Source of the DNA: an uncultured Thermodesulfobacteriota bacterium | GTDB taxonomy: Bacteria; Desulfobacterota; B13-G15 | Assembly (NCBI GenBank): GCA_964611295.1 | Contig: CAZSWV010000001.1 | Coordinates: 1,869-65,868 of the forward strand | Direction: 5' to 3' | Length of the DNA: 64,000 bases | Part shown: piece after piece, positions 46,638 through 62,169 of the stretch | Position numbering within the stretch: the stretch's first letter is position 1 | Layout: each line of letters starts with the position of its first letter | The notes under the pieces: model-generated | Seen by the model: only the letters and a program-made list of their open reading frames with translations | The model's database searches: none | What the model was told of the DNA's origin: nothing | Position numbers and translations under genes: made by a program

Positions 46638-47903
46638 ATGAGGGTACAAATGGAAAAGGAAGGGATAGTGTGGCCTATGGATGTACCGTTATTGCGTACT
46701 GTCACCACCACCTTTAACGCTCCTGAGTCCAAGTTGCTGATAAATTCCTTTTTCATGCCTAAGGTCTTCTACGGATTGGCTGGCTTACAGTTATTTGTGG
46801 GGTCAATGGCCCAACTGGGGAGGAAGAAGGCCTTTATCGTGACAGACAAAGGGGTCAAGGGATTGGCTTCTATTGTGGAGAAGGCCTTGAGGGGTGTGGG
46901 GATTGAAGTGAAGGTGAACGAGGGGGTAGAACCAGAGGTTCCCCTTCATGTCCCTCGGCAGATGGCCGAAGAGATGTCACAGTGGGGTCCGGATCTTATA
47001 GTAGCAGTGGGTGGTGGCAGTGTTATGGATACGGCCAAGGTGAGTTGGATCCTTTATGAGGTGCCTGAAGCCGATCTTGTAGCGATAGATCCTATGAAGC
47101 CCCTTGGATTGAGGAAGAAGGCCCTTTTGGCCTGTATCCCTACGACTTCCGGTACGGGTTCTGAGGCCACAAATGTCGCCGTTGTACATGACGAGAGCGT
47201 AAGCCCTGCTCGTAAAGAGGGGGTACTTCACCCAGAACTTTATCCGGATTTTGCGGTCCTTGATCCGAGGTTTGTAGTCCGTATGCCTAAGGACCTTACC
47301 CTTTGGACGGCCATGGACGCCTTGTCGCATGCGGTAGATTGTTATCTCTGTAGGTCGAGTAACCCTATTTCGGATGCTTTGGCTGTTAAGGCCATAAAGA
47401 TGATCTTTACATATCTACCGCTTGTGCTTGAAAGGCTCGATAACTTACAGTTGCGTTTGAGGATGCAGGTGGCAGCAATGATAGCGGGGGCTGCTTTTTC
47501 CAATGGTGGGATTGGCACAACGCATGCCCTGGCCCACAACATCGGTGCCATCTTTGGGGTCCACCATGGTATGGCCTGTGGGGTTACGATCCCTTACGTG
47601 ATTAAGTTCTATGCCGAAGTGGACGATAAGTTCCTTTCCTTAGCAGAGGAATTGGGGATAAAGGGAGAAGGACGTGAAGAGGTGTTGAGGGCGTTATTGG
47701 ACTATTTCCTTGCCTTTTACAAAAAGGTAGGGGCGCCTTTGACCATGAGGGATTTGGGTATTAAGGAGGAGGACTTTAAAGCCAAAGAGGACCTTTTCGT
47801 TAAGTACGCCTTGATGGACCCGACAGGTCCCATGGCACCTCGACAGCCCTCATATGAGGAGATGCGTCAGTTGATAGAAGACGTGTATTACGGGAGGGTG
47901 TGA
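46638..47903 (+). CDS. iron-containing (type III) alcohol dehydrogenase
   Basis: Has GGGSVMDTAK and the metal-binding His cluster HALAHNIGAIFGVHHG. The start is uncertain (ATG 46638, 46650 or 46680). Confidence 0.9.
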   Translation: MRVQMEKEGIVWPMDVPLLRTVTTTFNAPESKLLINSFFMPKVFYGLAGLQLFVGSMAQLGRKKAFIVTDKGVKGLASIVEKALRGVGIEVKVNEGVEPEVPLHVPRQMAEEMSQWGPDLIVAVGGGSVMDTAKVSWILYEVPEADLVAIDPMKPLGLRKKALLACIPTTSGTGSEATNVAVVHDESVSPARKEGVLHPELYPDFAVLDPRFVVRMPKDLTLWTAMDALSHAVDCYLCRSSNPISDALAVKAIKMIFTYLPLVLERLDNLQLRLRMQVAAMIAGAAFSNGGIGTTHALAHNIGAIFGVHHGMACGVTIPYVIKFYAEVDDKFLSLAEELGIKGEGREEVLRALLDYFLAFYKKVGAPLTMRDLGIKEEDFKAKEDLFVKYALMDPTGPMAPRQPSYEEMRQLIEDVYYGRV

Positions 47904-47904
47904 G

Positions 47905-49683
47905 ATGAAGGGCTATCATGGTAAGGCCTTGCAGGTGGATTTAAACACAGGTGAAATAAGGGAAGTAGGGATAGCGGAGGAACTTTTGAGGAGTTTTGTA
48001 GGCGGTTGTGGGTTGGCCGCTGTATTGCTCTATAAACATCTCCATAAGGACCTCGATCCCCTTTCGCCTGAGGCCCCCCTTGCCTTCGCTACAGGTGTCT
48101 TTACTGGTTTTTCACCTTTTTCCGGACGTCTGGCGATCGGGGGCAGATCGCCTTTGACGAACCTTTGGGGTGAAACTACCGTTGGGGGGTTTTTTGCAGT
48201 TGAGCTTAAGCGTTTTGGGATAGATGTGCTCCTGGTTAAGGGGAAGGCGCAAAAGCCGGTATACCTTTGTCTCAAGGAAGGAAAGGCAGAGCTGAAGGAT
48301 GCCTCGGACCTTTGGGGAAAGAAGGTTTCTGAAGTCTCTTCCCTTTTAAAGCAGAAAGAAGGGGAAAGGGTAAGGCTCCTCTGCATAGGTCCAGCAGGTG
48401 AAAGGCTTGTCAGGTTTTCGAGCATCATGGATGAGAACCACAGGGCAGCGGGCAGGACCGGCCTTGGTGCGGTCATGGGGTCGAAGAACCTAAAGGCCAT
48501 TGTAGTTCAGGGGAAGGAAGGACTTCCCGAGGTGGCCGACCAAGGAAGGTTAAAAGAGGTGTATTCACAGACCTTGGATAAGATCTCGGCAAATCCCGGA
48601 AGGGAACTCTGGCACACTTACGGTACCCTTATGTACACTACACAGGGTTACGAATTGGGAGATACTCCTGCCAAGTACTTCCAAGAGGGGGTATTTCCGG
48701 CCTTTAGGATCTCCGGTGAAGCCATGTTGGACAACTACGAGGTTAAAAACGAGGGTTGTGCCTTGTGTCCTGTCATATGTGGTCATCGGGTAAGGGGCGT
48801 CAAGATGGAATATGAGTCTGTGGCAGCCTTGGGTTCTAACTGTGGGGTATTCGACCTAGAGGGGCTCCTTGACGCCGTTGAGGTTTGTAACGAGATGGGG
48901 ATGGACACGATATCCGCCGGGGTAACGGTGGGGTTTGCCATGTACCTGACCGAAAAGGGGGTCCTTAAGGATGGGATCCGCTGGGGCGACAGCAAGGCCG
49001 TGGTGAGGTTGTTGGAGCAGATAGCCTTGAGGGAAGGTATAGGTGACCTATGGGCGGAAGGGACCATGAGGGTAGCCGAGAGGTTAGGGGTTGATCCAGA
49101 GGAAGCGGCGCATGTAAAAGGGCTTGAGGTCCCTATGCATGATCCAAGGGCCTTCAGCATGCAAGGGCTGTGTTATGCCACAGGTGTCAGGGGAGCCTGT
49201 CACATGAGGTCTGACTACTTTACGGTGGACATAGCTGCGGCCCCCATACCCGAATTAGGGGTTGTGCCAGGTGACAGGTTTGAAGAGAGCGAGCAAAAGG
49301 TCAAGATGATGGTAGTGCACCAGAACGTCAAGGAAGTTTGGAACTCAGGGGTTATATGTATGCTCGGTATGTTTGACATAAATGACCTGTGTACCTTTTA
49401 CGGAGCTATAACGGGGATAGAGCTTAAGCCGCAAGATGTCTCCAATCTCGGTGAGAAGAGCTATATGTTGAAAAGGCTTCTGAACCTGAAGTTGGGGATG
49501 ACAAAAGGTCATGAGAGGCTCCCCAAAGTTGTAACTATGCCCTTGAAGAAAGGGGGAACTAGGGGTTTTTCGCCCAACCTAAGTAAGACCCTTGAACTTT
49601 ACTACAGGATTCGACAGCTAAAGGAGGACGGTTATCCTTCTGAGCAGAAATTGGAGGAACTTGGGCTGAAGGAGTTCGTGTAA
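47905..49683 (+). CDS. aor: aldehyde:ferredoxin oxidoreductase family tungstopterin enzyme
   Basis: 592 aa with N-terminus MKGYHGKALQVDLNTGEI...FVGGCGLAA, the [4Fe-4S] motif CALCPVIC, and GVRGACHMRSD. Confidence 0.9.
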   Translation: MKGYHGKALQVDLNTGEIREVGIAEELLRSFVGGCGLAAVLLYKHLHKDLDPLSPEAPLAFATGVFTGFSPFSGRLAIGGRSPLTNLWGETTVGGFFAVELKRFGIDVLLVKGKAQKPVYLCLKEGKAELKDASDLWGKKVSEVSSLLKQKEGERVRLLCIGPAGERLVRFSSIMDENHRAAGRTGLGAVMGSKNLKAIVVQGKEGLPEVADQGRLKEVYSQTLDKISANPGRELWHTYGTLMYTTQGYELGDTPAKYFQEGVFPAFRISGEAMLDNYEVKNEGCALCPVICGHRVRGVKMEYESVAALGSNCGVFDLEGLLDAVEVCNEMGMDTISAGVTVGFAMYLTEKGVLKDGIRWGDSKAVVRLLEQIALREGIGDLWAEGTMRVAERLGVDPEEAAHVKGLEVPMHDPRAFSMQGLCYATGVRGACHMRSDYFTVDIAAAPIPELGVVPGDRFEESEQKVKMMVVHQNVKEVWNSGVICMLGMFDINDLCTFYGAITGIELKPQDVSNLGEKSYMLKRLLNLKLGMTKGHERLPKVVTMPLKKGGTRGFSPNLSKTLELYYRIRQLKEDGYPSEQKLEELGLKEFV

Positions 49684-49691
49684 AAGGGCCG

Positions 49692-49970
49692 ATGCGCATA
49701 AGGGCTGTCCTTTCGGCTTTACAGTTCAAGGACCTTTGGTCCAAGTTAGGGGGTAAGGTATTGGAATTGAATCTACCCGAAGGCAGTAGGCTTGAGGATG
49801 CCCTTCGCGTCTTATCGGAGAACCTAGGCCTTGACCTCATGGGGATGTTGGAAGGGAAAAAGGTGGTCCTTTTTTACCGTAATTCCGCAGTGTCGATCGA
49901 TAAGGATAGGGAAAAGGACCTCAAGGAAGGGGAAGAACTTTTATTCATAACCCCTCTTATCGGGGGGTAA
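49692..49970 (+). CDS. MoaD/ThiS-family ubiquitin-like small protein ending in Gly-Gly
   Basis: 92 aa with a C-terminal LKEGEELLFITPLIGG followed directly by the stop, matching the MoaD pattern L.dGDE....PP.sGG. The RBS is weak. Confidence 0.6.
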   Translation: MRIRAVLSALQFKDLWSKLGGKVLELNLPEGSRLEDALRVLSENLGLDLMGMLEGKKVVLFYRNSAVSIDKDREKDLKEGEELLFITPLIGG

Positions 49971-49991
49971 AACGCAAAAGGAGGTGGAGTT

Positions 49992-51212
49992 ATGGGAAGG
50001 GGTTTGAGGAAATGGTGTACGTTGGCCTTAGGACTTATGGTCCTATTGGCCCTGGGTGTAGTCCAAGCTAAGGACAAGATAGTTATAGGCCAAGCATGGC
50101 CCCTTTCAGGACCTGGAGCAGGTGCTGCGAGGGTTTCAGGGGGAATGATATACGAGATGTGGGTAAAGGAAGTAAACAAGGCTGGTGGTATCTATGTAAA
50201 ACAATATGGTAAGAAGTTGCCTGTTGAGCTCAAGATCTACGATAACGAGACCGATATAGGTAAGACCACCAAGTTGATAGAGAAGTTGATCCTCGAGGAC
50301 AAGGTGGATTTCGTGCTTCCTCCCTGGGGTACTGCTTTCCTTTATGCTGCTGCAAATATATGTAATAAATACGGTTATATACTTATCGGTGGACCAGGTG
50401 GAGCAGCCAAGCTAAAGGAGCTGGACTTACCGTATTTCTTCCAAGTATTGAACTTCTCTGAAACGCAGATGCCTGCCTTGGCCGAGATCTTCAAAGAGGT
50501 AGGGGTAAAAAGCATAGCTATGATATATCGCGGCGACTTACACGGTGTGGAGTACGCTGGCATTGCCGGTCCGGTTTTCAAACAGGCGGGCTTTCAAGTC
50601 AAGATGATGAAGTCCTTCCCTCCCGATGTCACAAAGGACTTTACGCCATTTCTAAAAGAGGCCAAATCCATGGGGGTGGATGCCTTTTTGGCTGCTTGTT
50701 ACCCACCTGAGGTCATAGCCATCACAGAGCAAGCGATAGCCACAGGGATCAACTTCAACGCCATGTGGTTCAGTGTGGGTCCTTATGACCCGGTGCTTTA
50801 CAGGGACAATTTCGGCGTAAACGTAGTAGAAGGTGTAATGGGTGGTGGTGCTTGGAACCACAAATCATCACCAGGAGCCGCTGAACTGGTAAAGTTGCAC
50901 AAACAGTATTATAAAGTGGAACCCGATTATTGGGGCGCCTTGTATTATTGGTCCTCGCTTCAGCACTTCCAGAAGGCCATAGAAAAGGCTGGGACCTTGG
51001 ACCAGAAGGCCGTACGAGATGTTTTGGCGACTTCGAAGTTCGACACTGCCCTTGGCCCCTATTGGTATGACGAAAAGAGGATGTTGGCCAAAGAATGCCA
51101 CCCAGGCGAAGTCGGACAGTGGCAAAAGGGGGTGTTTGAGGTCATAGACAAGAGCCCTAAGAGGACGGCCAAACCCCTTTATCCTAAGCCTGCGTGGCCT
51201 ACTAAGAAGTAA
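49992..51212 (+). CDS. ABC transporter substrate-binding protein, Liv/type-I PBP family (copy 1)
   Basis: 406 aa with signal peptide LALGLMVLLALGVVQA, then KDKIVIGQAWPLSGPGAGAA. It is followed by livHMGF-type genes. Confidence 0.88.
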   Translation: MGRGLRKWCTLALGLMVLLALGVVQAKDKIVIGQAWPLSGPGAGAARVSGGMIYEMWVKEVNKAGGIYVKQYGKKLPVELKIYDNETDIGKTTKLIEKLILEDKVDFVLPPWGTAFLYAAANICNKYGYILIGGPGGAAKLKELDLPYFFQVLNFSETQMPALAEIFKEVGVKSIAMIYRGDLHGVEYAGIAGPVFKQAGFQVKMMKSFPPDVTKDFTPFLKEAKSMGVDAFLAACYPPEVIAITEQAIATGINFNAMWFSVGPYDPVLYRDNFGVNVVEGVMGGGAWNHKSSPGAAELVKLHKQYYKVEPDYWGALYYWSSLQHFQKAIEKAGTLDQKAVRDVLATSKFDTALGPYWYDEKRMLAKECHPGEVGQWQKGVFEVIDKSPKRTAKPLYPKPAWPTKK

Positions 51213-51230
51213 GGTATCAATTAGAGTAGA

Positions 51231-51261
51231 GGGCAGGGGGTGAGGAGACCACCCCCTGCCC
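51231..51261 (+). other. intercistronic GC-rich stem-loop (12-bp perfect stem, 7-nt loop)
   Basis: GGGCAGGGGGTG-aggagac-CACCCCCTGCCC begins 19 nt after the binding-protein stop. No U-tract follows. Confidence 0.6.
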
Positions 51262-51300
51262 AATAGGGTGGGTTCGAAAAAAGGCCAAAGGGGTAGGAGG

Positions 51301-52173
51301 ATGGTCTTATTACTGAACGTGGTAATCGGCGGGCTTTTAATGGGTGGTATTTATGCCCTTGCCTCTGTGGGGTTGAGCATGCAATATGGCGTGGGACGGG
51401 TACTGAACATAGCCCACGGGGAATTCCTGATGATAGGGGCCTTTTTGGCCTGGACCTTTTATACGAACTGGGCCATAAGTCCATTGCTTACCCTTCCTTG
51501 TGCCGCAGCTTTTTTGTTCCTTATAGGTTTTTCACTTGATAGGAGCCTTTTTTCGCGGTTGCGGTACGTATCGCCTTCTATTGAGGCCTTTGAGGCAAGT
51601 TCCCTTATGGCGTGTTTTGGGCTTCAGTTTATCATCCAGAACATCGCCATCCTCATCTGGGGGGCTGAATTACGGGGATATAACTACCTGGCCGTACCGG
51701 TCAACATAGGTGGTGCGGTCTTTGGGGCAAATAGGCTCATAACTTTGGCCTTTGCCCTGGGGATAAGTTTCGTATTTTACCTTTTCTTGTCCAAGACTCG
51801 GCAGGGTAAGGCTATAAGGGCTTCTTCACAGGACATATATGCTGCAGGGCTCATGGGGATAGATATAAAACACGTCTTAAGCCTTTGTTTTGCGTTTGGC
51901 GCCATGCTTGCTGGGGTAGCGGGGATACTGATAAGCATGATGTACAGCATTCAGACCACCATGGGCATGGAATATACCGTTATAGCTTTAATTGTGATCG
52001 TCCTTGGGGGATTAGGCAGTATAACGGGTAGCCTTATAGGTGGTTTTATCCTTGGTACCATTGGGAGCATTATGAGCTATGTTGAACCAGGGCTGACCCT
52101 AGTGGCTTACTACGTGTTGTTTATGATCCTACTGTTGATAAAGCCTACAGGGCTTATGGGGAGTGGGCGATGA
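51301..52173 (+). CDS. livH: branched-chain-amino-acid-type ABC permease (LivH family)
   Basis: Reads MVLLLNVVIGGLLMGGIYALASVGLSM.... ATG 51301 is preceded by AGGAGG, and the track start 51268 was rejected. Confidence 0.88.
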   Translation: MVLLLNVVIGGLLMGGIYALASVGLSMQYGVGRVLNIAHGEFLMIGAFLAWTFYTNWAISPLLTLPCAAAFLFLIGFSLDRSLFSRLRYVSPSIEAFEASSLMACFGLQFIIQNIAILIWGAELRGYNYLAVPVNIGGAVFGANRLITLAFALGISFVFYLFLSKTRQGKAIRASSQDIYAAGLMGIDIKHVLSLCFAFGAMLAGVAGILISMMYSIQTTMGMEYTVIALIVIVLGGLGSITGSLIGGFILGTIGSIMSYVEPGLTLVAYYVLFMILLLIKPTGLMGSGR

Positions 52174-53099
52174 AGATACCTAAGGCGGTGGGATTAGGAG
52201 GTTTGCTAGTCTTCTTAAGTATCCTCCCTACTATAGGTTCCCCATATTCCATAGTTCTTTTAAGCAATATCTTCATGTACATCGTCCTTACCGTAAGTTG
52301 GGTGCTGTTTTCGGCTCCTACAGGGTATATATCTTTGGCATCGGCTGCCTTTTTCGGAGCAGGGATATACTCAGCAGCTGTGCTAAGTTTCAAAGTCCCC
52401 TTTGTGATTATTGTGGCAATAGGTGCATCAGTGGGATTCCTTCTGGCGTTGTTTATAGGAGTCCTTACCCTGAGACTTAAAGGCATATACTTTGCTATGT
52501 TCACCTTCGGCTTTGTAGAGTTACTCCTCCATTTCGTACTCTGGTATGAAGCGAATATTACAGGTACCACGGGAAGAGTGGTGATGACGCTTTCTAATAA
52601 AGAGGTATATTATTTGATGCTTGTTTTATGCGTGTTGCTTATAACAGTAACATACCTTGTTCACCGTTCACGTTATGGAATAGCTTTACGTAGCATAGGC
52701 CAAAACGAAATAGCTTCAGAGCATGTGGGAGTAAACGTTGTTAAACTTAAAGTTATCACCTATGCCCTCAGTGCGGCATTTGTGAGTGCTGCAGGTGTAA
52801 TTATGGCGACAAGGTGGACATACATTGATCCGAAGATAGCCTTTAATCCCCTTTATTCCTTTATACCTATCTTTATGGCTATATTCGGAGGGGTCAGGTA
52901 TTTATATGGCCCTATAATTGGGGCTATTGTGTTTACTTATCTGCAGGAAGTCCTTACCACGCGTTTCCCCTATTATTACATGTTGACCTTTGGCCTTCTT
53001 ATGGTGCTTATAATCGCGTATATGCCTGAAGGTATAACTGGGATCATTAGGACCTTATTGAAGCGAAAGGAGGTGGAGGCAGGACATGGCCTTGCTTGA
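52170..53099 (+). CDS. livM: branched-chain-amino-acid-type ABC permease (LivM family)
   Basis: 309-aa polytopic protein reading GYISLASAAFFGAGIY.... Confidence 0.87.
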   Translation: MKIPKAVGLGGLLVFLSILPTIGSPYSIVLLSNIFMYIVLTVSWVLFSAPTGYISLASAAFFGAGIYSAAVLSFKVPFVIIVAIGASVGFLLALFIGVLTLRLKGIYFAMFTFGFVELLLHFVLWYEANITGTTGRVVMTLSNKEVYYLMLVLCVLLITVTYLVHRSRYGIALRSIGQNEIASEHVGVNVVKLKVITYALSAAFVSAAGVIMATRWTYIDPKIAFNPLYSFIPIFMAIFGGVRYLYGPIIGAIVFTYLQEVLTTRFPYYYMLTFGLLMVLIIAYMPEGITGIIRTLLKRKEVEAGHGLA

Positions 53100-53820
53100 G
53101 GGAAAAGGGGTTACCAAGGCCTTTGGCGGTCTCATAGCGGTGAACAAGGTGGATTTCAGGATCGAAAAAGGGGAAATCGTGGGTTTGATCGGTCCAAATG
53201 GGGCTGGTAAGACCACCCTTTTTAACCTGATTTCTGGGGCCATTAAGCTTGACAGGGGTGAGATCGCGCTTGAAGGCAAAAAGATAAGCGGCCGTGGGCC
53301 TCATGAGATATGTAGGATGGGTATTGCGAGGACCTTCCAAGACGTTAAGGTCTTTGGGAACATGAGCGTACTGGAGAACGTGCTCCTTGGGGCGGTATTC
53401 GGAGGAAAGGACGGGAGGTCTATGAGGGAAGCCCAAAAGGTGGCGATGGAGGAAATTGAGTTCTGTGGGCTTAAAGGGTTTGAGAAAGCCTTAGCTAAGG
53501 ATATTCCCCTGGCCTATCAGAAAAGGCTCGAGGTGGCTAGGGCTTTAGCTACAAGGCCTAAACTCCTCATGTTGGATGAGTTGATGGCAGGTTTAAATCC
53601 CACTGAGACCCAAGAAGCCATGGATTTGGTCAAGGCGATAAGGGAAAGGGGGATCACAGTTTTCATGATAGAACATGTCCTTCGTGCCATCATGAACATA
53701 TGCGAGAGGGTGATGGTGTTGCATTATGGGGAAAAGATAGCCGAAGGCACGCCCCAGGAGGTCTGCTCGAACCCTAAGGTCGTGGAAGTCTATTTGGGGG
53801 AGAAGGTATGCTTCGAGTAG
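53086..53820 (+). CDS. livG: ABC transporter ATP-binding protein (LivG family)
   Basis: 244 aa with Walker A GPNGAGKTT and the C-terminal VVEVYLGE. Confidence 0.9.
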   Translation: MALLEGKGVTKAFGGLIAVNKVDFRIEKGEIVGLIGPNGAGKTTLFNLISGAIKLDRGEIALEGKKISGRGPHEICRMGIARTFQDVKVFGNMSVLENVLLGAVFGGKDGRSMREAQKVAMEEIEFCGLKGFEKALAKDIPLAYQKRLEVARALATRPKLLMLDELMAGLNPTETQEAMDLVKAIRERGITVFMIEHVLRAIMNICERVMVLHYGEKIAEGTPQEVCSNPKVVEVYLGEKVCFE

Positions 53821-54512
53821 AAAAGTTGAGCGTAGCCTTTGGGAAAATCCGGGTTTTATGGGATGTCTCCTTAAGTGTCAACGAAGGCGAGATAGTGGCT
53901 ATCATCGGGGCCAATGGCGCTGGTAAGACCACTTTGCTGAATGCCATTTCTGGTTTAGTCAAGCCTTTGTCCGGTACCATTGAGTTTATGGGACAACGGA
54001 TCGATCACCTCCCGCCCCACAAGATCGTGGAGATGGGCATTGTACACATACCTGAAGGGGGAAAGCTGTTCATGGAGATGAACGTGAAGGAGAACTTGGA
54101 AATGGGGGCCTTTCCCCCAAGGGCTTGGAAGGATAGGGAAAAGGAGGCACAGAAGCTTTACGAACTCTTTCCCCGTTTGAAAGAGAGACAAAGGCAATTG
54201 GCGAGGACCTTGAGCGGAGGCGAAAGGCAGATGTTGGCCATAGCCCGCGGTTTGATGTCGAGGCCACGGCTTTGTATGTTCGACGAACCTTCCTATGGGC
54301 TTGCTCCGTTGGTGGTGAGGGAGATCATGGAGGTGATAAAGACGTTACCTGCAAAAGGGATTTCTGTGCTTTTAGTGGAGCAAAACGTCAACCTCGCCCT
54401 CGAAGTGGCACACAGGGGTTATGTGCTTGAGAATGGACGGATAGTATTAGAGGGGCCAAGCCATGAACTTTTGCAGACGGAGATGATAAAAAAGGCCTAT
54501 TTAGGCATGTGA
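53808..54512 (+). CDS. livF: ABC transporter ATP-binding protein (LivF family)
   Basis: 234 aa with Walker A GANGAGKTT, signature LSGGERQ, and the C-terminal KKAYLG. Confidence 0.9.
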   Translation: MLRVEKLSVAFGKIRVLWDVSLSVNEGEIVAIIGANGAGKTTLLNAISGLVKPLSGTIEFMGQRIDHLPPHKIVEMGIVHIPEGGKLFMEMNVKENLEMGAFPPRAWKDREKEAQKLYELFPRLKERQRQLARTLSGGERQMLAIARGLMSRPRLCMFDEPSYGLAPLVVREIMEVIKTLPAKGISVLLVEQNVNLALEVAHRGYVLENGRIVLEGPSHELLQTEMIKKAYLGM

Positions 54513-54534
54513 AAATAAAAAGAGGAGGTGTGAG

Positions 54535-55485
54535 ATGGGCGTAAAGGGTAAGGGTTTGAGGGTTATTTTGGGGGTTTTATTGATGATGTGCCTTTTTGTG
54601 GTCTCAGCTTATGCGAAAAGGGAAATAGATCCTTTGGTGTCACCGGATTGGGTTGGGGCCAATATCGTAAACCCAAAGTTAGTGATCCTTGATGTGAGGA
54701 GCGCTCAGGAATATGCCAAAGGGCACATACCTGGCGCCATAAATGTCCCAGTGGCTTTTCCGGCTTCGGCATGGACTGCGCCAAAGGGCAACGTGGTATT
54801 CGAAGTGCCTCCTGACGAAGAGCTCGTAAAGACCATACGCAATGCCGGTATCAAAGAGGACTCATGGGTGGTGATAGTGGGTAGGACCACAGGACCCATG
54901 CCCTATTACGCCATGGCTGATGCTACACGGGTTGCCATAACCTTGCTTTATGCGGGTATTGAGAACGTGGCCATAATGGAAGGTGGATTCGACAAGTGGG
55001 TGTGGGAAGGGAAGCCCGTTTCAAAAGTAGCCGAAAAACCTAAGCCTAGCGACTTCAAGGGCAACTTCAAAAAGGAGATGTTCGCCACCAAGGAAGAGGT
55101 ACTAGAGAAGATTGGGAAGGCTGTGATCATAGATTCCCGCGATGCCGATGTTTATTTCGGAGTGAAAACGGAGCCTTGGAGCCCAAGGCCTGGTCACATC
55201 CCAACGGCTAAAAGTCTCCCTACGCCTTGGTTGTGGGACATGAGGAAGGACTACGGTGTGTACCGTGAAAGGGAGGTGTTGGCCGAAATGGTGAAGACCT
55301 TAATAGGGGAACCAACTGCTGACAAAGAGGTCATCGTATATTGTGGCGTGGGTGGTTATGCCAGCACCATGTACTTTGTCTTAAAGGAGGTCCTCGGTTA
55401 TCCCAATGTGAAGATGTACGATGGTTCAGCTCAAGAGTGGAACCTAGATCCAAATGCGCCTTTGGTGAAGTTCAAATGGGAATAA
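54535..55485 (+). CDS. secreted two-domain rhodanese (thiosulfate/3-mercaptopyruvate sulfurtransferase family)
   Basis: 316 aa with signal peptide VILGVLLMMCLFVVSAYA, a first domain containing DVRSAQEYAKGHIPGAINVP, and active-site loop VYCGVGGYAS in the second domain. Confidence 0.82.
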   Translation: MGVKGKGLRVILGVLLMMCLFVVSAYAKREIDPLVSPDWVGANIVNPKLVILDVRSAQEYAKGHIPGAINVPVAFPASAWTAPKGNVVFEVPPDEELVKTIRNAGIKEDSWVVIVGRTTGPMPYYAMADATRVAITLLYAGIENVAIMEGGFDKWVWEGKPVSKVAEKPKPSDFKGNFKKEMFATKEEVLEKIGKAVIIDSRDADVYFGVKTEPWSPRPGHIPTAKSLPTPWLWDMRKDYGVYREREVLAEMVKTLIGEPTADKEVIVYCGVGGYASTMYFVLKEVLGYPNVKMYDGSAQEWNLDPNAPLVKFKWE

Positions 55486-55541
55486 GAAAGGGCTGATTGA
55501 GATATAAAAAGACCAAATCGAAAAAAACGGAGGTGTAGAGG

Positions 55542-56177
55542 ATGGCGGGGGATTTAGTGCAGGCAATAGCTGACTTACAGGAAGATGAAGCCTTAAAGAT
55601 CGTAAAGGAGCGCTTGGAGGCCGGGGAGGATCCCCTCAAGATCCTAGAAGATGCGCGGACTGGACTTGAAATTGTAGGAAAGCGTTTTGCAAGTGGTGAG
55701 TATTTCATTCCAGATCTTATATATTCAGGCGAGATAATGAGCCAAATTACCGAAATAGTTAAGCCTAAGATCGGAGAAGTCCAGCGCGAGGCCAAAAAAT
55801 TGGGCAAGGTGGTAATTGGTACTGTAGCGGGTGATATCCATGACATAGGCAAGAACATAGTGGTGTTCATGCTTGAGGTAAACGGTTTTGAAGTGCACGA
55901 CCTTGGTGTGGATGTGCCGCCTGAGAAGTTCGTCCAGAAGGTGAAGGAGACCGGTGCCACAATTTTGGGGTTAAGCGGTTTCCTTACCTTGGCCTTTGAT
56001 TCCATGAAGAGGACCATAGAGGCCTTAAAAGAGGCTGGCCTTAGGGAAAGGGTAAAGGTGATGATAGGGGGTGGACAGGTCACTGAAGAGGTAAGGAAGT
56101 ATACAGGTGCCGATGCCTATGGCAAAGACGCTATGGCGGCTGTGACCATTGCCAAAAGTTGGGTAGGGGCGGCTTAG
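55542..56177 (+). CDS. cobalamin-binding corrinoid protein (MtaC/MtbC/O-demethylase CP type)
   Basis: 211 aa with an N-terminal helical cap (LVQAIADLQEDEA) and the B12 motif DxHxxG (GDIHDIGKN). It also has SGFLT and MIGGG. Confidence 0.9.
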   Translation: MAGDLVQAIADLQEDEALKIVKERLEAGEDPLKILEDARTGLEIVGKRFASGEYFIPDLIYSGEIMSQITEIVKPKIGEVQREAKKLGKVVIGTVAGDIHDIGKNIVVFMLEVNGFEVHDLGVDVPPEKFVQKVKETGATILGLSGFLTLAFDSMKRTIEALKEAGLRERVKVMIGGGQVTEEVRKYTGADAYGKDAMAAVTIAKSWVGAA

Positions 56178-56222
56178 AATTGGCCTTACCCCTGTGAAAA
56201 CCAAGTTAAGGAGGTTACGAGG

Positions 56223-57584
56223 ATGGAAAAGAAATGGGAGGAGATGTCCCCTGATGAAAGGAGGGAGTCATTAATACAGAGGTGGCTTTCCCCTAAGGCC
56301 CCAGATGGAAGCGATATAAAGTTCAAGAGTCCAGAGGCAGAGGAGGCCTATAAAGCACGGGTGAGGAGGTTAGTGGCAGCCATTAAACTGGAAGAAACAC
56401 CGGATCGAGTCCCCGTATTGCCGCTTCCCAATATGTTTCCGGTTTACTATTACGGCATAACGGTCCAAGAGGCCATGTACGATTATGAGAAGTGTGGCGC
56501 TGCCTTTAGGAAGTTCGTGCTTGATTTTGAACCGGACGCTACTATGGGATGTATGGGGCCTGGTCCAGGGAAGTTTTACGACTTGGTGGATTACAAACTC
56601 TACAAATGGCCAGGGCATGGTCTGCCTCCTGATCGTTGTTATCAAGCGGTGGAAGGCGAGTATATGAAGGCAGATGAATACGATATGTTAATCCAAGATC
56701 CTACTTATTATTTCCTTACGGTTTATTTTCCTCGTGCCTTTGGGGCGTTACAGGGGTTAAGCCTGTTGGCACCGCCCACAAACGTCTTGGAGTTTTATCC
56801 CACCTTTTCAGCTGTCAATTTCATCCCCTTTGCCCTCCCGCCGGTTCAAGAGGCCCTAAAGGTTATGGCGGAGGCAGGAGCTGAGGTATTGCGATGGTTG
56901 GAGGCTGTGGTTGCGTGGAACGTAGACATAATATCCAGTGGTTACCCCTTGCTTGCTGGTGGTGGATGCAAAGCCCCCTTTGACATGATAGGGGATACTT
57001 TGAGGGGGACCAAAGGGATAATGCTTGACATGTACCGACAACCCGATAAACTCCTCCAGGCTTTGGAAGCCATGGTGCCCTTTATGGTGAGGATGGGGGC
57101 TTCAGCGGCAAAGATGAACGGCAATCCCATGGTCTTCATCCCCCTTCACAAGGGTGCTGATGGGTTCCTTTCTGACCAACAGTTTAAGACCTTTTATTGG
57201 CCGACCTTGAAAAAGGTCATCCTTGGGCTCATCGAGGAAGGTTGTATACCTTTGCTCGTGGCAGAAGGCGGTTACAACTCGAGGCTTGAGACAATAGCCG
57301 ACCTGCCTAAAGGGAAGGTAGTGTGGATGTTCGATCAAACGGATATGGCGAAGGCCAAAAAGGTCCTGGGAGATGTAGCCTGTATCATGGGGAATGTACC
57401 CACGGATTTGCTCATAGTTGGAACCACCCAGCAGGTCAGAGATTACGTGAAAAAGCTCATCGACGACTGCGCACCAGGGGGAGGATTTATACTTGCAAAC
57501 GGGGCCTTCTTTGACGAGGCGAAGGCAGAGAACATCAAAGCAATGGTCGATTTTGCCAAAGAGTACGGTGTATACCGAAGGTAG
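56223..57584 (+). CDS. uroporphyrinogen-decarboxylase (URO-D) family methyltransferase, candidate substrate:corrinoid methyltransferase (MT-I)
   Basis: 453 aa. The overall pattern resembles URO-D/MtaA-like methyltransferases of corrinoid systems, and the gene is sandwiched between the corrinoid protein and activation genes. The family call is from memory, not a computed alignment. Confidence 0.65.
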   Translation: MEKKWEEMSPDERRESLIQRWLSPKAPDGSDIKFKSPEAEEAYKARVRRLVAAIKLEETPDRVPVLPLPNMFPVYYYGITVQEAMYDYEKCGAAFRKFVLDFEPDATMGCMGPGPGKFYDLVDYKLYKWPGHGLPPDRCYQAVEGEYMKADEYDMLIQDPTYYFLTVYFPRAFGALQGLSLLAPPTNVLEFYPTFSAVNFIPFALPPVQEALKVMAEAGAEVLRWLEAVVAWNVDIISSGYPLLAGGGCKAPFDMIGDTLRGTKGIMLDMYRQPDKLLQALEAMVPFMVRMGASAAKMNGNPMVFIPLHKGADGFLSDQQFKTFYWPTLKKVILGLIEEGCIPLLVAEGGYNSRLETIADLPKGKVVWMFDQTDMAKAKKVLGDVACIMGNVPTDLLIVGTTQQVRDYVKKLIDDCAPGGGFILANGAFFDEAKAENIKAMVDFAKEYGVYRR

Positions 57585-57593
57585 TGGTAGCAA

Positions 57594-58277
57594 ATGCCCA
57601 TCTGTAAAGGGATCTCGCTGCCCCTAAACCCTGAGGAGGTGATAAAGCGCTTTAAGGGCGGAAGGGGGGAAAGGGCAAAGGCTTTGGCCTTCGAAGTCCT
57701 TGAGGAGAGCAGGGCGCTCATCGACCCTGGAGTCGCCTGGGAAGAATATCCGGTAATGGGCTTAAAGGACGGAGAAGCCTTCCTTGAGGGCGGTTGGACC
57801 CTTCGCCTTTTGGTCCAACCGCCCTCAAGGGGAAAGGTGGAAAGGGTTGTTGCTTTGGCTGGTACCATAGGGGATAAGATCGAGCAATGGGTATCTAGAC
57901 TTTTCAAAGGCGGTGAGGCTTTAAAGGCTACAATAGCGGACCTTGTAGGCAGCCTTTACGTGGAAGTCCTAATGGATAGGGCCTGTGAATGTATGAGCAG
58001 GTATGCGCTGGGTTATGGTCTTAGGTCTAGTCACCTTTTTAGCCCAGGTATGCCGGGCATGCCCCTTGAAGAACAGCCTAAGTTGGTGGAGATGGCCAAG
58101 GGGGCACGTGTAGGCATCCACACTACCGAAAAGGGCATGATGGTCCCGGAGAAGTCCTTCTGTGGAGTTATAATCTTAGGGGAAGACGTCCCCAGTTGGG
58201 ATAGACATGTTTTCTGTAAACGTTGTGCCTTACGGGACAGTTGCCCTTTCAGAAGTGAAATAATTCATGGCCTTTAA
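57594..58277 (+). CDS. standalone methionine-synthase (MetH) activation-domain-like protein
   Basis: 227 aa. FSPGMPGMPLEEQPKLVEMA...GIHTTEKGMMVPEKSFCGVIILG resembles the MetH reactivation-domain core. It has a C-terminal CKRCALRDSC. Confidence 0.6.
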   Translation: MPICKGISLPLNPEEVIKRFKGGRGERAKALAFEVLEESRALIDPGVAWEEYPVMGLKDGEAFLEGGWTLRLLVQPPSRGKVERVVALAGTIGDKIEQWVSRLFKGGEALKATIADLVGSLYVEVLMDRACECMSRYALGYGLRSSHLFSPGMPGMPLEEQPKLVEMAKGARVGIHTTEKGMMVPEKSFCGVIILGEDVPSWDRHVFCKRCALRDSCPFRSEIIHGL

Positions 58278-60102
58278 GGTCTTTTTCGAACCTATGGGTA
58301 AAAGCGGTGAATGTATGGAAGGCGAAACCGTACTCGAATGCGCTCATCGTCTCGGTATTTCACTGCTCAGTTCCTGTGGTGGAAGAGGAGTATGTGGAAA
58401 CTGTCGAGTGAGGGTTTTAGAGGGTGAGGTCAATGGACCTACGGCTTCTGAAAGGGAGTTCTTCGAACAAAAGGAACTTCAATCAAACTGGAGGCTTGCT
58501 TGTCAAGTCTCACCCCTGTCGCATTTGCGGGTTTTTGTGCCTTTGGAGTCCTTAGGATTTGCCGAAAGGTTCCAAGTGGAGGGAATGGAAAGGGGGGTAG
58601 AGTTTAAGCCTGTGGTGAGGGCTAAAGAGGTCTCCCTTATCCCTCCTTCTTTGAACGACGTACGGGCTGATGTGGACAGGGTTGTGGACGCCTTAGCTGA
58701 GGGGGGCGTGGAACTTGAGTCTGTTGACCTTTTGGCTTTGAAAGAAGCAGGAAGGTCGTTGAGGAACTGGGGGTGGAGGGCAAAGGCGGTGGTTTGGAAG
58801 AAGGAGTTAATAGGCCTCCTTCCAGGGACCTCCTCTCCTCTTGGTGTGGCTGTTGACTTGGGGACTACTAAGATCGCCCTCTATCTCCTCGATCTCGAAG
58901 GGGGTAAGACGCTTTCTTCGATGGGCGTACTTAACCCACAGGTCACTTTTGGGGAGGATGTCATTACCCGGATACAGAAGGCAAGGTCTTCTCCAGAGAA
59001 GGCCGAAGAGCTGAAGCGGGTGGTCCTTGAAGCCGTAAACGGAGCCGTGGACGAACTTCGGAAGGGGGTAGGCGCTGAGCCGAGTCAGATAGTAGAGATG
59101 GTCTTTGTGGGCAATACGGCCATGCACCACCTCTTTTTGGGTTTGCCTGTGGACTGGCTTGCCCAATCCCCTTTTGTTCCGACTTTGAACAGGGCCTTTT
59201 CCTTAAAGGCCCGTGAGCTCGGCCTGAAAGTGGCAACAGGGGCTTATATGCATTTTTTGCCAAACATAGCGGGTTTTGTGGGTAGCGATCATGTAGCGGC
59301 CTTACTTGCCAGTGGCGTCTTAGAGGAAAAGGGGCCGTTGTTGCTTTTGGACATTGGTACGAACACTGAGATATCGCTGATCAAAGAGGGCAACATCCAT
59401 ACCGTTTCTACCCCTTCGGGACCGGCCTTTGAGGGGGCTCATCTGAAGTACGGTATGAGGGCCCTTGCGGGAGCCATCGAACGGGTTAGGATTGCCCACG
59501 GGAAGGTTTGGTATAAGACCATTGGGGATCTCCCTCCCCGGGGTATTTGTGGTTCAGGGATAATCGATGCGGTTGCTGAGCTCTACAGGGCAGGCCTTCT
59601 AGATGAGAGGGGAAGGTTTGTAGACGGCCACCCCAACTTCAGAGAAGTGGACGGCGTGAAGGAGTTTTTATTGGTTGAAGGGCCCGAAGCCGAAGGTAGG
59701 ACCTTGTCCATAAGCCAAAAGGACGTACGGGAACTCCAATTGGCGAAGGCATCCATAAGGGCAGCAATAGAGGTGTTATTGAAGGAGGCACGTTGTGACT
59801 ACGAAGAACTTGAAAAAGTAGTGATAGCAGGTGCTTTTGGTACCTATATAAGCATAAGGAGTGCCCTTACCTTAGGGATGTTTCCTCCCCTGCCCCTTGA
59901 GAAGTTCCTGCAGGTGGGCAATGCCGCTGGGATAGGGGCGAAGATGGCCCTTTTGTCCGAAAGAAAGCGCAAAGAGGCCGAAAGCATAGCGAGTAAGGCT
60001 CGCTATATAGAGCTTGCTGCTACTGATCTTTTCCGAGGGTATTTGCTTGAAGCCTTGGCCTTAGGCGAATATCGGTTTGACCATAAAGGCAGGAGGTGTT
60101 GA
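58267..60102 (+). CDS. RACo-type reductive activator of corrinoid proteins (2Fe-2S ferredoxin + ASKHA ATPase, DUF4445)
   Basis: 611 aa with N-terminal plant-type 2Fe-2S SCGGRGVCGNCRV. ASKHA phosphate motifs are VAVDLGTTKIA and LLLDIGTNTEI. Confidence 0.85.
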   Translation: MAFKVFFEPMGKSGECMEGETVLECAHRLGISLLSSCGGRGVCGNCRVRVLEGEVNGPTASEREFFEQKELQSNWRLACQVSPLSHLRVFVPLESLGFAERFQVEGMERGVEFKPVVRAKEVSLIPPSLNDVRADVDRVVDALAEGGVELESVDLLALKEAGRSLRNWGWRAKAVVWKKELIGLLPGTSSPLGVAVDLGTTKIALYLLDLEGGKTLSSMGVLNPQVTFGEDVITRIQKARSSPEKAEELKRVVLEAVNGAVDELRKGVGAEPSQIVEMVFVGNTAMHHLFLGLPVDWLAQSPFVPTLNRAFSLKARELGLKVATGAYMHFLPNIAGFVGSDHVAALLASGVLEEKGPLLLLDIGTNTEISLIKEGNIHTVSTPSGPAFEGAHLKYGMRALAGAIERVRIAHGKVWYKTIGDLPPRGICGSGIIDAVAELYRAGLLDERGRFVDGHPNFREVDGVKEFLLVEGPEAEGRTLSISQKDVRELQLAKASIRAAIEVLLKEARCDYEELEKVVIAGAFGTYISIRSALTLGMFPPLPLEKFLQVGNAAGIGAKMALLSERKRKEAESIASKARYIELAATDLFRGYLLEALALGEYRFDHKGRRC

Positions 60103-60951
60103 ATGGAAACTAGGATTTCCAGCGCTACAAAGGAAGTAGTCATTTCCCCCTCAAGGCCCACTGTGCTTATCGGTGAGAGGATAAACCCTGCGGGTAAAAA
60201 ACGCCTCCAAGAAGCCCTGAAGTCAGGCGACCTGAGCTTAGTGCGTGAAGAGGCCATCATGCAAGTACAAGCGGGGGCGGACGTCCTCGACGTATGCGTG
60301 GGGACCTTTGGCGTAGACGAGGTCAAGCTTTTGCCTGAAGCCGTGAAGGTGATCATGGAAGCTGTAGATGTCCCTTTGTGCATAGACAGCGCAAATCCTA
60401 AGGCCCTTGAGGCGGCCCTTAAGGTTTACAAGGGAAAGGCCCTTGTTAACTCGGTCACTGGGGAAGAGCGATCTTTAAGGGAGGTCTTACCAATAGTAAA
60501 GGACTACGGAGCAGCGGTCATAGGCCTTGTGCAAGACGACGAAGGTATTCCCAAAGATGCCGACAGGAGGGTGGCCATAGCCCATAAAATTGTGGAAAGG
60601 GCTGAAGCCTTAGGGATTGACCGAAGTGATGTGGTGATAGACTGCCTCGCCTCTTCTGTAGGTGCGGACCTTTCTGCTGGGAAGGCCGTCCTTGAGGCCA
60701 TAAGGAGGGTAAGGGAGGAGCTTGGGGTCAACATCACCCTGGGGGCTAGCAACATCTCCTTTGGTCTTCCTGACAGGGAGCTTCTGAACAGGACTTTCAT
60801 ATCCATGGCCATAGCTTTTGGTGCTACATGTTTGATAGTGGACGTGGCACAGGTTAGGGCCGCAGCAGTAGCTGCAGATCTCATCCTAGGGCGCGACCCC
60901 AGGGCGCGCAGATATATTTCCCTTTATAGGGAACGCCCATATGGAAAGTGA
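60103..60951 (+). CDS. pterin-binding methyltransferase (MeTr/AcsE/MtrH-like; methyl-corrinoid:tetrahydrofolate MT-II candidate)
   Basis: 282 aa reading LIGERINPAGKKRLQEALKSGDLSLVREEAIMQVQAGADVLDV, with NSVTGEE and LGASNISFGLP of the DHPS-like TIM barrel. Confidence 0.82.
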   Translation: METRISSATKEVVISPSRPTVLIGERINPAGKKRLQEALKSGDLSLVREEAIMQVQAGADVLDVCVGTFGVDEVKLLPEAVKVIMEAVDVPLCIDSANPKALEAALKVYKGKALVNSVTGEERSLREVLPIVKDYGAAVIGLVQDDEGIPKDADRRVAIAHKIVERAEALGIDRSDVVIDCLASSVGADLSAGKAVLEAIRRVREELGVNITLGASNISFGLPDRELLNRTFISMAIAFGATCLIVDVAQVRAAAVAADLILGRDPRARRYISLYRERPYGK

Positions 60952-60963
60952 AGGAGGTGCGAG

Positions 60964-62169
60964 ATGAAGAGATTGGCGTTGTTTTTGGTCTTCATTTGGT
61001 CACTTTTTGCCTTTTTGGCCCAGGCTAAGGAGAAGTTAGTAATAGGTCAAGCCTGGCCTCTGACAGGTCCCCTTGCTGGTGCTGCGAGGCTTTCGGCTGG
61101 GACCACTTACGAGATGTGGGTAAAGGAGGTGAACAAAAAAGGGGGAATTTACGTGAAACAATATGGTAAGAGGCTTCCTGTAGAGCTTAAGGTTTACGAC
61201 AATGAAAGCGATATAGGGAAAACGGTGAGGTTATTGGAAAAGTTGATTCTGGAAGATAAGGTGGACTTTGTACTACCTCCTTGGGGGACTGCATGGCTTT
61301 ACGCTGCAGCCAACGTCTGTAACAAATACGGTTATGTGCTAATTGGAGGTGCTGGTGGAGCTACAAAACTTAAGGAGCTTACCCTGCCTTACTTTTTCCA
61401 GGTTTTAAACTTCGCCGAGACCCAAGGGCCGGCTTTGGCCCAGATATTTAAGGAGGTAGGGGTAAAGAGTGCGGCTATCTACTACAGAAGCGACCTACAC
61501 GGTCTGGAATATGCTGGGATATTAGCCCCTTATTTCAAACAACTGGGGATCCAAATAAAGGTCATAAAAGGCTTTCCTCCTGATGTAGTAAAGGACTTTA
61601 CGCCCTTCTTAAAAGAAGCAAGTGCAGCAGGGGTTGATGCATTTGTTGTTGCCTGTTATCCACATGAAAGCGTGGCAATTACCGAACAGGCCATAGGTTC
61701 GAACATAAACTTTAACGCTATTTGGTTTAGCGTTGGGCCTTATGATCCTGTAGTGTACAGGGATACCTTTGGTTCCAACGTAGTGGAAGGGGTAATGGGT
61801 GGAGGTGCGTGGAACGCCAAATCGTCCCCTGGGGCAGCGGAACTTGTCAAAAAACACAAGGAATACTTTGGAGTAGAACCCGCATATTGGGGTACCCTTT
61901 ATTTTTACTCTTCTCTGGAACATTTCCAACAGGCCATAGAGAAGGCAGGTACCCTTGACCAGAAGGCCGTAAGGGACGTCTTGGCAAAAAGCAAGTTCAA
62001 CACATCCCTGGGCCCCTATTGGTATGACGAAAGGCAAATCCTAGCAAAAGAATGTCACCCTGGACAGATCGGACAATGGCAAAAAGGCATCTTCGAGGTA
62101 ATAGACACAGGCCCAAAACGCACAGCACCACCTGTTTACCCAAAGCCCAATTGGCCTAAAAAGAAATAA
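60964..62169 (+). CDS. ABC transporter substrate-binding protein, Liv/type-I PBP family (copy 2, close paralogue of 49992..51212)
   Basis: 401 aa with signal peptide LALFLVFIWSLFAFLAQA. The mature sequence is about 80-85% identical by eye to copy 1 over the first ~150 residues. It begins 13 nt after the MeTr gene. Confidence 0.88.
   Translation: MKRLALFLVFIWSLFAFLAQAKEKLVIGQAWPLTGPLAGAARLSAGTTYEMWVKEVNKKGGIYVKQYGKRLPVELKVYDNESDIGKTVRLLEKLILEDKVDFVLPPWGTAWLYAAANVCNKYGYVLIGGAGGATKLKELTLPYFFQVLNFAETQGPALAQIFKEVGVKSAAIYYRSDLHGLEYAGILAPYFKQLGIQIKVIKGFPPDVVKDFTPFLKEASAAGVDAFVVACYPHESVAITEQAIGSNINFNAIWFSVGPYDPVVYRDTFGSNVVEGVMGGGAWNAKSSPGAAELVKKHKEYFGVEPAYWGTLYFYSSLEHFQQAIEKAGTLDQKAVRDVLAKSKFNTSLGPYWYDERQILAKECHPGQIGQWQKGIFEVIDTGPKRTAPPVYPKPNWPKKK

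Follow-up and report, generated by a model that had tools for sequence, protein, structure and literature searches.

A run of five genes in an uncultured hot-spring Thermodesulfobacteriota bacterium of the sulfate-reducer type raises the question of what a long protein of the URO-D family does when it is encoded beside a corrinoid protein, a corrinoid activase and a pterin-binding methyltransferase, and which methyl donor it would serve. The genes occupy positions 55542-60951 of a 64,000-nt stretch of DNA (assembly GCA_964611295.1, contig CAZSWV010000001.1), called the window here; all coordinates are window positions. They encode a corrinoid protein (CP), a 453-aa URO-D-family protein (MT-I, the candidate substrate:corrinoid methyltransferase), a 227-aa protein resembling the reactivation domain of MetH, a RACo-type activase and a candidate methyl-corrinoid:tetrahydrofolate methyltransferase (MT-II). 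We consider it fairly probable that the locus encodes a catabolic corrinoid-dependent system of the O-demethylase type that delivers methyl groups to tetrahydrofolate (THF), with methoxylated aromatic alcohols, aldehydes and acids as the likeliest substrates. Corrinoid methyl transfer to folate is already known as a kind of system, and the MT-I clade is, in the tree described below, the sister group of MtvB.

As reported in the initial annotation, the five open reading frames (ORFs) were found at exactly these coordinates, all on the plus strand and with no gap larger than 45 nt. The annotation had also presented the five genes as the complete system; all five are real, but the functional unit is probably larger.

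Phylogenetic placement of MT-I

The Pfam match of MT-I to URO-D (E 4.5e-22) covered residues 247-448 only. In BLASTP comparisons with reference sequences (printed with the CdmB paper, PMC13222342, as Supplementary Data 3; MtvB, WP_011391929.1), MT-I was 36% identical to MtvB of Moorella thermoacetica over 418 aa (E 7e-74), 29-31% identical to four MtoB proteins and 26% identical to CdmB. Matches to OdmB, VdmB, CmuA, MecE and MecC were marginal or absent, and UroD of Bacillus subtilis gave none at E<=10. The best sequence match among solved structures was CdmB (E 1.5e-39), with human UROD reaching only 4.5e-4.

In a tree computed with IQ-TREE under the LG+C20 model (support given as UFBoot/SH-aLRT), MT-I and its relatives formed a clade of their own (100/100), which was sister to MtvB together with long paralogues from Acetobacterium dehalogenans (97/97). 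Both belonged to a super-clade of long MT-I proteins comprising the window clade, MtvB, MtoB and CdmB (98/97), within which the CdmB clade was separate from that of the window (100/99). UroD, which formed the outgroup, OdmB/VdmB and MecE all lay outside the super-clade. A quick tree with more rows agreed with this placement, and MT-I grouped with the O-demethylases of the MT-I type, not with the MtaA-type MT2 enzymes. An assignment of MT-I as the MtvB orthologue was rejected, as it falls beside the MtvB clade, not inside it.

The initial annotation had taken the 453-aa protein for a URO-D-family MT-I and not for a bona fide HemE, and had suggested phylogenetic placement as a check. The tree bears out both statements: MT-I lies inside the long MT-I clade with UroD outside, and therefore does not cluster with HemE, while OdmB and the MtaA-type enzymes lie elsewhere. 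A true uroporphyrinogen decarboxylase that is clustered with methyltransferase genes by coincidence would explain the Pfam match, as well as the presence of human UROD among the top Foldseek matches of the AlphaFold2 model (mean pLDDT 92.7), which has a URO-D/MtaA fold and returned UROD and MtaA. (The Foldseek library copy was older than the CdmB structure entry, so that CdmB was not retrievable by structure.) However, the hemE model TIGR01464 scored 26.3 bits against a cut-off of 303, and the negative UroD search and the position of UroD in the tree point the same way. Furthermore, ORFs were called in 81 related loci and clustered independently of the window; 53 of these loci were 12 kb or longer, and 43 of the 53 had a CP gene next to that of MT-I, almost always directly upstream. 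The decarboxylase explanation is thus effectively refuted.

Active-site features of MT-I

In the alignment, the window clade and MtvB had a nearly identical KAPFD..GDTLRG.KGI.LD block and a common two-residue insertion, LH(K/R)GA, which is missing from MtoB and CdmB. His309 and Glu348 were invariant in the window clade and were also kept in MtvB, all four MtoB proteins and three A. dehalogenans paralogues, whereas CdmB, a haloalkane enzyme, has Trp and Gln at these positions.

An H-x-C ... C zinc-binding motif is known from MtaA and MetE. The V-A-E(348) segment of MT-I aligned with the HxC of MtaA-like proteins, CmuA, MecE and VdmB, which puts Glu348 at the Cys position; the thiol-type zinc site is therefore absent from MT-I. 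Because His309 and Glu348 are kept, and the CdmB-type replacements and the zinc site are both absent, the alignment favours ether-type chemistry over halomethane or thiol chemistry. A zinc thiol methyltransferase of the MtaA/MtbA/MtsA type was rejected on the replaced HxC motif and on the MtaA/CmuA model, which scored 45.8 bits against a cut-off of 235.

The same residues bear on whether the locus could encode a halomethane dehalogenase of the Cdm type. CdmBCA is the chloromethane dehalogenase/methyltransferase of A. dehalogenans (PDB 9RUI; PMC13222342); it comprises the same MT-I, CP and MT-II set, and CdmB, besides being the best solved-structure match of MT-I, shares its long URO-D architecture, which is extended between the first beta-strands. 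However, MT-I is 26% identical to CdmB as against 36% to MtvB, the clade of CdmB, which uses haloalkanes and not methoxylated aromatics, is separate, and both residues kept in MT-I are replaced in CdmB. In addition, a binding-protein-dependent importer, such as the one encoded beside the five genes, would be unneeded for a gas. A Cdm-type activity is thus very improbable.

CP, RACo and MT-II

CP contained the Pfam domains B12-binding_2 and B12-binding, with a DxHxxG motif that reads DIHDIG, and was 43% identical to CdmC. The activase had the complete RACo architecture (Pfam Fer2, RACo_linker, Raco_middle and RACo_C_ter), and it matched an AcsV-like NCBIfam model (391.9 bits, under the 800-bit cut-off). 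MT-II matched Pfam Pterin_bind (E 3e-30) and PRK07535 (299.5 bits, over the 259-bit cut-off), and shared 39% identity with a bacterial methanol-system MT-II (MtaA), 34% with MtvA and 32% with AcsE, with CdmA falling within 32-39%.

The corrinoid protein, RACo-type activator and pterin-binding MeTr-like protein named in the initial annotation are thus all clear Pfam family matches, and the PRK07535 score and the identities to the methanol-system MT-II and MtvA support its proposal that the MeTr homologue would act as the MT-II to THF. With MT-I, CP, MT-II and an activase, the predicted products comprise all four components of the O-demethylase-type architecture. As noted previously, no MtaB- or MttB-type methyltransferase gene was found in the 44-64 kb part of the window by Pfam scan.

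The 227-aa MetH-reactivation-fold protein

The 227-aa protein had been described as MetH-activation-domain-like. In sequence, the Met_synt_B12 (PF02965) match was weak (21.9 bits, under the 25-bit Pfam cut-off), and phmmer detected TM0269 of Thermotoga maritima (PDB 1J6R) at E 2e-5. The AlphaFold2 model (mean pLDDT 83.6) gave 19 Foldseek matches at E<=0.001, every one a MetH activation domain, with 1J6R, which is also similar in size, at the top (E 4e-10, TM 0.68/0.77). The fold and the homology to 1J6R thus uphold the description, except in one respect. RxxxGY is the S-adenosylmethionine (SAM)-binding motif of MetH. At its position, TM0269 has RISPGY, whereas the 227-aa protein has LFSPGM and its family consensus is SPISPGM; in the family, PGM is invariant, no Arg is conserved, and a C-terminal Cys triad (C208, C211 and C217) is invariant. 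Since RxxxGY is missing, the 227-aa protein does not amount to a complete second device for reactivation.

In a profile search of 1.84 billion representatives, this family comprised 7498 clusters at E<=1e-3, of which 4518 reached E<=1e-10; almost all are stand-alone proteins of about 225-240 aa. Homologues were found in 19 of the 81 MT-I loci (in Dehalococcoidia and the window lineage), mostly directly before the RACo gene. The loci of Desulfobacterales and Bathyarchaeia have RACo and lack the 227-aa protein, which is therefore an accessory. In the window as well, the gene adjoins RACo in a catabolic methyltransferase operon, and not MetH. These observations suggest that the 227-aa protein probably supports RACo-dependent reactivation by binding inactive CP, without SAM. 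A search of the available literature for MetH-activation-like accessories in O-demethylase operons gave nothing specific.

As a separate observation, DUF1638 genes lie near MT-I in six of the 81 loci (L051, 7731-8423, and five others). DUF1638 has been genetically tied to RamA-like B12 reactivation in Phaeobacter (bioRxiv 10.1101/192971), and may be an alternative accessory in place of the 227-aa protein.

The presence of a MetH-reactivation homologue invites the opposite direction of transfer, in which methyl-THF would methylate CP and the URO-D protein would methylate an acceptor, as in a methionine or thiol methyltransferase of split, MetH-like organisation that is repaired by RACo and the MetH-reactivation-like protein. 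The combination of MeTr, CP, MetH-reactivation homologue and RamA/RACo-like activase does resemble split methionine synthases (bioRxiv 10.1101/192971), and the URO-D and MetE folds are related, as seen in MetE matches of the MT-I model at a Foldseek E of about 1e-4. Nevertheless, MT-I has no Zn thiolate-binding motif and groups away from the MtaA-type MT2 enzymes, its gene lies with those of importers and catabolic dehydrogenases and has paralogues, and the 227-aa protein, found in only 19 of 81 loci, lacks the SAM motif. We regard this direction as improbable.

The probable extended gene unit

The functional unit probably spans 46638-62169 (Table 1), because the importer and the alcohol/aldehyde oxidoreductases encoded around the five genes recur with MT-I in related loci. 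The co-directional run from the Fe-type alcohol dehydrogenase (Fe-ADH) gene to that of the second substrate-binding protein (SBP2) had no convincing internal promoter or terminator. A promoter and terminator scan of 45.5-64 kb returned fewer sites than shuffled sequence, so that it gives no operon boundaries.

Table 1. Genes of the probable extended unit, in window positions
Feature	Position	Strand	Remarks
Fe-ADH, probable first gene of the extended unit	46638-47903	+	Pfam Fe-ADH, ADH_Fe_C
Tungsten/molybdenum aldehyde:ferredoxin oxidoreductase (AOR family)	47905-49683	+	Pfam AFOR_N 1e-73, AFOR_C 2e-107
MoaD/ThiS-like small protein	49692-49970	+	92 aa; C-terminus PLIGG; weak ThiS match (21.1 bits, just below cut-off)
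Liv-type substrate-binding protein, copy 1 (SBP1)	49992-51212	+	Signal peptide; Peripla_BP_6 E 4e-45
LivH/LivM-type ABC permeases	51268-52173; 52170-53099	+	Pfam BPD_transp_2 in both
LivG/LivF-type ABC ATPases	53086-53820; 53808-54512	+	Cluster with ABC_tran ATPases of related loci
Exported tandem rhodanese	54535-55485	+	Two Pfam Rhodanese domains; signal peptide; active-site loop CGVGGYA
CP (predicted methyl carrier)	55542-56177	+	211 aa; 45 nt before next ORF
MT-I, predicted long URO-D-type substrate:corrinoid methyltransferase	56223-57584	+	453 aa; 9-nt spacer after
MetH-reactivation-domain-fold protein, stand-alone	57594-58277	+	227 aa; 11-nt overlap with RACo gene start
RACo-type ATP-dependent reductive activase (2Fe-2S + ASKHA)	58267-60102	+	611 aa; 0 nt to next ORF
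MT-II, predicted methyl-corrinoid:THF methyltransferase, MeTr type	60103-60951	+	282 aa
Liv-type substrate-binding protein, copy 2 (SBP2)	60964-62169	+	Pfam Peripla_BP_6

The extended gene order was kept in three related loci (L001, L006 and L007) at 56-86% protein identity, except for the 227-aa protein (35-37%). Fe-ADH was syntenic in the same three loci at 76-78% identity; its best NCBIfam matches were the C-terminal half of AdhE and a lactaldehyde-reductase-like model, both below cut-off. The MoaD-like gene also follows AOR in L001 and L005. SBP1 and SBP2 are 77% identical and flank the importer, rhodanese and methyltransferase genes. Against solved structures, SBP1 gave weak matches only (urea- and Leu-binding proteins, E about 1e-8), and therefore no ligand is proposed for the binding protein from this comparison.

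The rhodanese gene sits between livF and the CP gene, and homologues lie beside the CP/MT-I pair in 16 of the 53 loci, Bathyarchaeia included. We know of no role for a rhodanese in O-demethylation; one possibility is that it is linked to the pterin cofactor of AOR through the MoaD-like gene.

Beyond SBP2, a second ABC locus with livG/livF-like genes begins at 62360. In L001, this locus goes on to encode an AMP-forming ligase, a pair of permeases and a third binding protein.

Transcription

One sediment metatranscriptome contained contigs 95-99% identical to the window, which cover the genes for ADH, AOR, SBP1, LivG/F, rhodanese, CP, MT-I, RACo and MeTr. Single RNA contigs bridge the livF/rhodanese (54233-54540), MT-I/227-aa and MeTr/SBP2 (60799-61053) junctions, which supports polycistronic transcription in a near-identical strain. 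The RNA contigs are, however, assembler products, and DNA carry-over is possible, both of which limit this support.

A metatranscriptome contig of the near-identical strain has one base fewer in the 9-nt spacer between the MT-I and 227-aa genes (window 57586); this difference between strains leaves every reading frame intact.

Distribution and conserved gene context

A word-indexed search returned at least 7958 significant clusters of MT-I relatives, the best 120 of which were 61-99% identical to MT-I. The species-representative genomes contained 224 stretches with a gene for a relative, of which the best 80 all come from metagenome-assembled genomes; the closest of these belong to Thermodesulfobacteriota (82% identity), and the others to Dehalococcoidia, Anaerolineae, Bathyarchaeia, Desulfobacterales, Spirochaetota and the Olavius Delta-1 symbiont. 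Among the relatives listed, none was a clade member that had been cultured or assayed. The window DNA itself was present in hot-spring metagenomes of at least five studies.

Besides CP, several partners recurred in the 53 loci. Liv-type importer genes were found in 35, an MT-II in 25 (MeTr in bacteria, MtrH in archaea) and RACo in 18. Alcohol or aldehyde oxidoreductases were present in 31 loci overall, with AOR or aldehyde dehydrogenase (ALDH) in 27 and Zn- or Fe-ADH in 23, while an AMP-forming ligase occurred in nine and GlcDEF-like genes in eight. AOR genes are few per genome, yet one lay within 10 kb in 24 of the 81 loci, far above a chance expectation that we roughly estimate, without computing it, at a few percent. 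Pfam annotation revealed the same partners in shuffled order on contigs of Bathyarchaeia, Spirochaetota and Thorarchaeota and on Dehalococcoidia-like contigs. Non-orthologous replacement was also seen, with AOR, ALDH or xanthine-dehydrogenase-type enzymes in one role and Fe-ADH, Zn-ADH or short-chain dehydrogenases/reductases in the other.

Some genomes, and some single loci, carry two MT-I copies, as in substrate-specific MT-I families. The occurrence of two paralogues in single loci suggests that the MT-I family is diversifying by substrate.

In L027, L047 and L049, two long MT-I paralogues per locus are 49-62% identical to the window MT-I. In L088 (11725-21353) and L005 (2510-8257), which represent other lineages, the CP/MT-I pair lies near Zn-ADH, ALDH or AOR and a GlcD/GlcF/GlcE-like trio, whose domains are FAD_binding_4, CCG and FAD_binding_4; L088 additionally encodes a xanthine-dehydrogenase-family enzyme and an IclR regulator.

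Proposed mechanism and substrate

In the O-demethylase-type system that we favour, the methylated substrate would be imported via the adjacent Liv-type ABC system, and MT-I would present it to Co(I)-CP, which would take up the methyl group to give CH3-Co(III). The MeTr-type MT-II would then hand the methyl group from CP to THF. Co(II) arising accidentally would be re-reduced by RACo with ATP and a low-potential electron, a repair in which the 227-aa protein probably assists by binding inactive CP, with no SAM involved. ADH and AOR would convert the substrate or product between its alcohol, aldehyde and acid forms. The data show which genes are present, where MT-I falls in the tree, that the context is conserved and that a near-identical strain transcribes the locus, whereas each step of this mechanism, including the direction of methyl transfer, the class of substrate and what the 227-aa protein does, is inferred from the protein families.

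The most economical guess is that the substrate is a methoxylated aromatic compound at the alcohol, aldehyde or acid level (for example vanillyl alcohol, vanillin or vanillate), and that the linked ADH and AOR would interconvert these side-chain oxidation states. We favour this class because MtvB and MtoB are the nearest assayed enzymes, because lignin monomers occur in the alcohol, aldehyde and acid states, and because the Peripla_BP_6 family includes aromatic-acid binders.

Several observations weigh against an aromatic substrate. An identity of 36% to MtvB does not fix the substrate, as the different donor of CdmB indicates. Nothing in the neighbouring dehydrogenases and CoA ligases points specifically to aromatic compounds: the Zn-ADH representative is class-III-like, ALDH is generic and the ligase is FadD-like, and all these matches fall below the curated NCBIfam cut-offs, so that they do not separate aromatic from aliphatic substrates. 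Furthermore, none of the solved aromatic-acid binding proteins closely resembles the one encoded here, and the proposed mechanism leaves the conserved exported rhodanese without a part to play.

With no aromatic signature in the partners or the binding protein, and with the rhodanese unexplained, we therefore retain, as an unlikely but serious alternative, a non-aromatic donor handled by an unchanged architecture. This donor could be an aliphatic methyl ether (a methoxy-alcohol or methoxy-acid), the demethylated product of which would be an alcohol for oxidation by the linked ADH and AOR/ALDH, or a methylthio or sulfonium compound such as 3-methylthiopropionate, methionol/methional or dimethylsulfoniopropionate. 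The recurrence of alcohol/aldehyde oxidoreductases in 31 of 53 loci, and of a GlcDEF-like 2-hydroxy-acid oxidase in some, would fit such a donor, and the exported rhodanese in 16 of 53 loci hints at sulfur chemistry. The best matches of the partners are aliphatic (lactaldehyde reductase/dehydrogenase, class III ADH, FadD-like ligases), although every one of them is below its curated cut-off, and Liv-type importers classically carry small polar molecules. On the other hand, the characterised relatives use aryl methyl ethers (MtvB and MtoB) or halomethanes (CdmB), alkoxides are poor leaving groups, and we know of no URO-D-type enzyme that cleaves aliphatic ethers. In addition, the HxC...C zinc site of the thiol-type URO-D methyltransferases is absent, with Glu348 at the Cys position.

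More broadly, we entertain, with low confidence, that the MT-I clade does not consist of lignin-type aryl O-demethylases and opens a new substrate class of corrinoid methyltransferases, namely imported polar methyl ethers or methylthio compounds, and that the 227-aa protein is a new CP maintenance factor acting with RACo. The demethylated product, or a precursor, may then be an alcohol or aldehyde for the co-inherited ADH, AOR/ALDH and GlcDEF-like enzymes.

Comparison with known systems

Among characterised systems, the O-demethylase reading of the locus is closest to MtvABC of M. thermoacetica, which acts on vanillate and dicamba. MtvB is the closest characterised relative of MT-I and shares its His, Glu and Cys positions, and both systems combine a CP with a pterin-binding MT-II. 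However, the N-terminal 250 residues of MT-I are divergent, with WPGHG where MtvB has FPGIH, and the identity between MtvA and the window MT-II is just 34%. Moreover, Mtv is described as three components, without the activase, ABC importer and dehydrogenases that are encoded in the window.

MtoABCD, the methoxydotrophy system of Methermicoccus shengliensis and Archaeoglobus fulgidus (PMC8630106, PMC8359953), has the same four roles of MT-I, CP, MT-II and 2Fe-2S RACo-type activase, and MtoB is a long (47-48 kDa) URO-D protein of the same super-clade as MT-I. In contrast to the MeTr-like MT-II of the window, MtoA is MtrH-like and uses tetrahydromethanopterin; archaeal members of the window MT-I clade likewise pair with MtrH. 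The Mto transporters belong to the major facilitator superfamily, whereas the window has a Liv-type ABC importer, and Mto lacks a MetH-activation-like gene, which the window has in the 227-aa protein.

OdmABCD and Vdm of A. dehalogenans and Desulfitobacterium hafniense follow the same four-component logic with an ATP-dependent activating enzyme, but their URO-D proteins, OdmB and VdmB, are short, at about 320-340 aa, and branch far from MT-I, beyond the clade of long MT-I proteins. The Cdm system, in turn, illustrates that an enzyme closely related to O-demethylases can act on a very different kind of methyl donor (PMC13222342).

Two further candidates were rejected. Type 1 mlp clusters, which act on methyl-sulfur compounds and methyl selenide (PMC10418091), have several short MtaA-like proteins that branch with coenzyme M methyltransferases, and no THF methyltransferase. 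The Bathyarchaeia-specific O-demethylase MtgB (PMC10989822) is an unrelated protein of about 300 aa.

Overall, the window locus would work like Mtv, Mto, Odm and Cdm, but it differs from the described systems in its separate, very large MT-I clade, its binding-protein importer, its conserved alcohol/aldehyde oxidation partners and, in this lineage, its fifth protein with the MetH-reactivation fold.

Implications

The MT-I clade is very large and occurs in uncultured anaerobes that rank among the most abundant in sediments, peat and hot springs, including Dehalococcoidia, Anaerolineae, Bathyarchaeia, Desulfobacterales and Thorarchaeota. Identification of the substrate would allow many "uroporphyrinogen decarboxylase" annotations to be corrected, and would show how these hosts feed methyl groups, for example from lignin methoxy groups, into C1 metabolism. 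The link to a binding-protein importer offers an experimental handle on the ligand, and the link to ADH and aldehyde oxidoreductases narrows the candidates. The 227-aa protein, for its part, is one of thousands of stand-alone proteins with the MetH-reactivation fold and no SAM motif.

Other features of the window

Two further ORFs lie elsewhere in the window. A 1125-aa ORF at 15660-19037 on the minus strand has GH130 (mannooligosaccharide phosphorylase) as its sole Pfam match, in the C-terminal residues 808-1114, and its first 800 residues have no Pfam match. The other, an 1831-aa ORF at 23845-29340, combines the DNA-binding and interaction domains of UvrA with several ABC ATPase modules, and is about twice the size of a normal UvrA.

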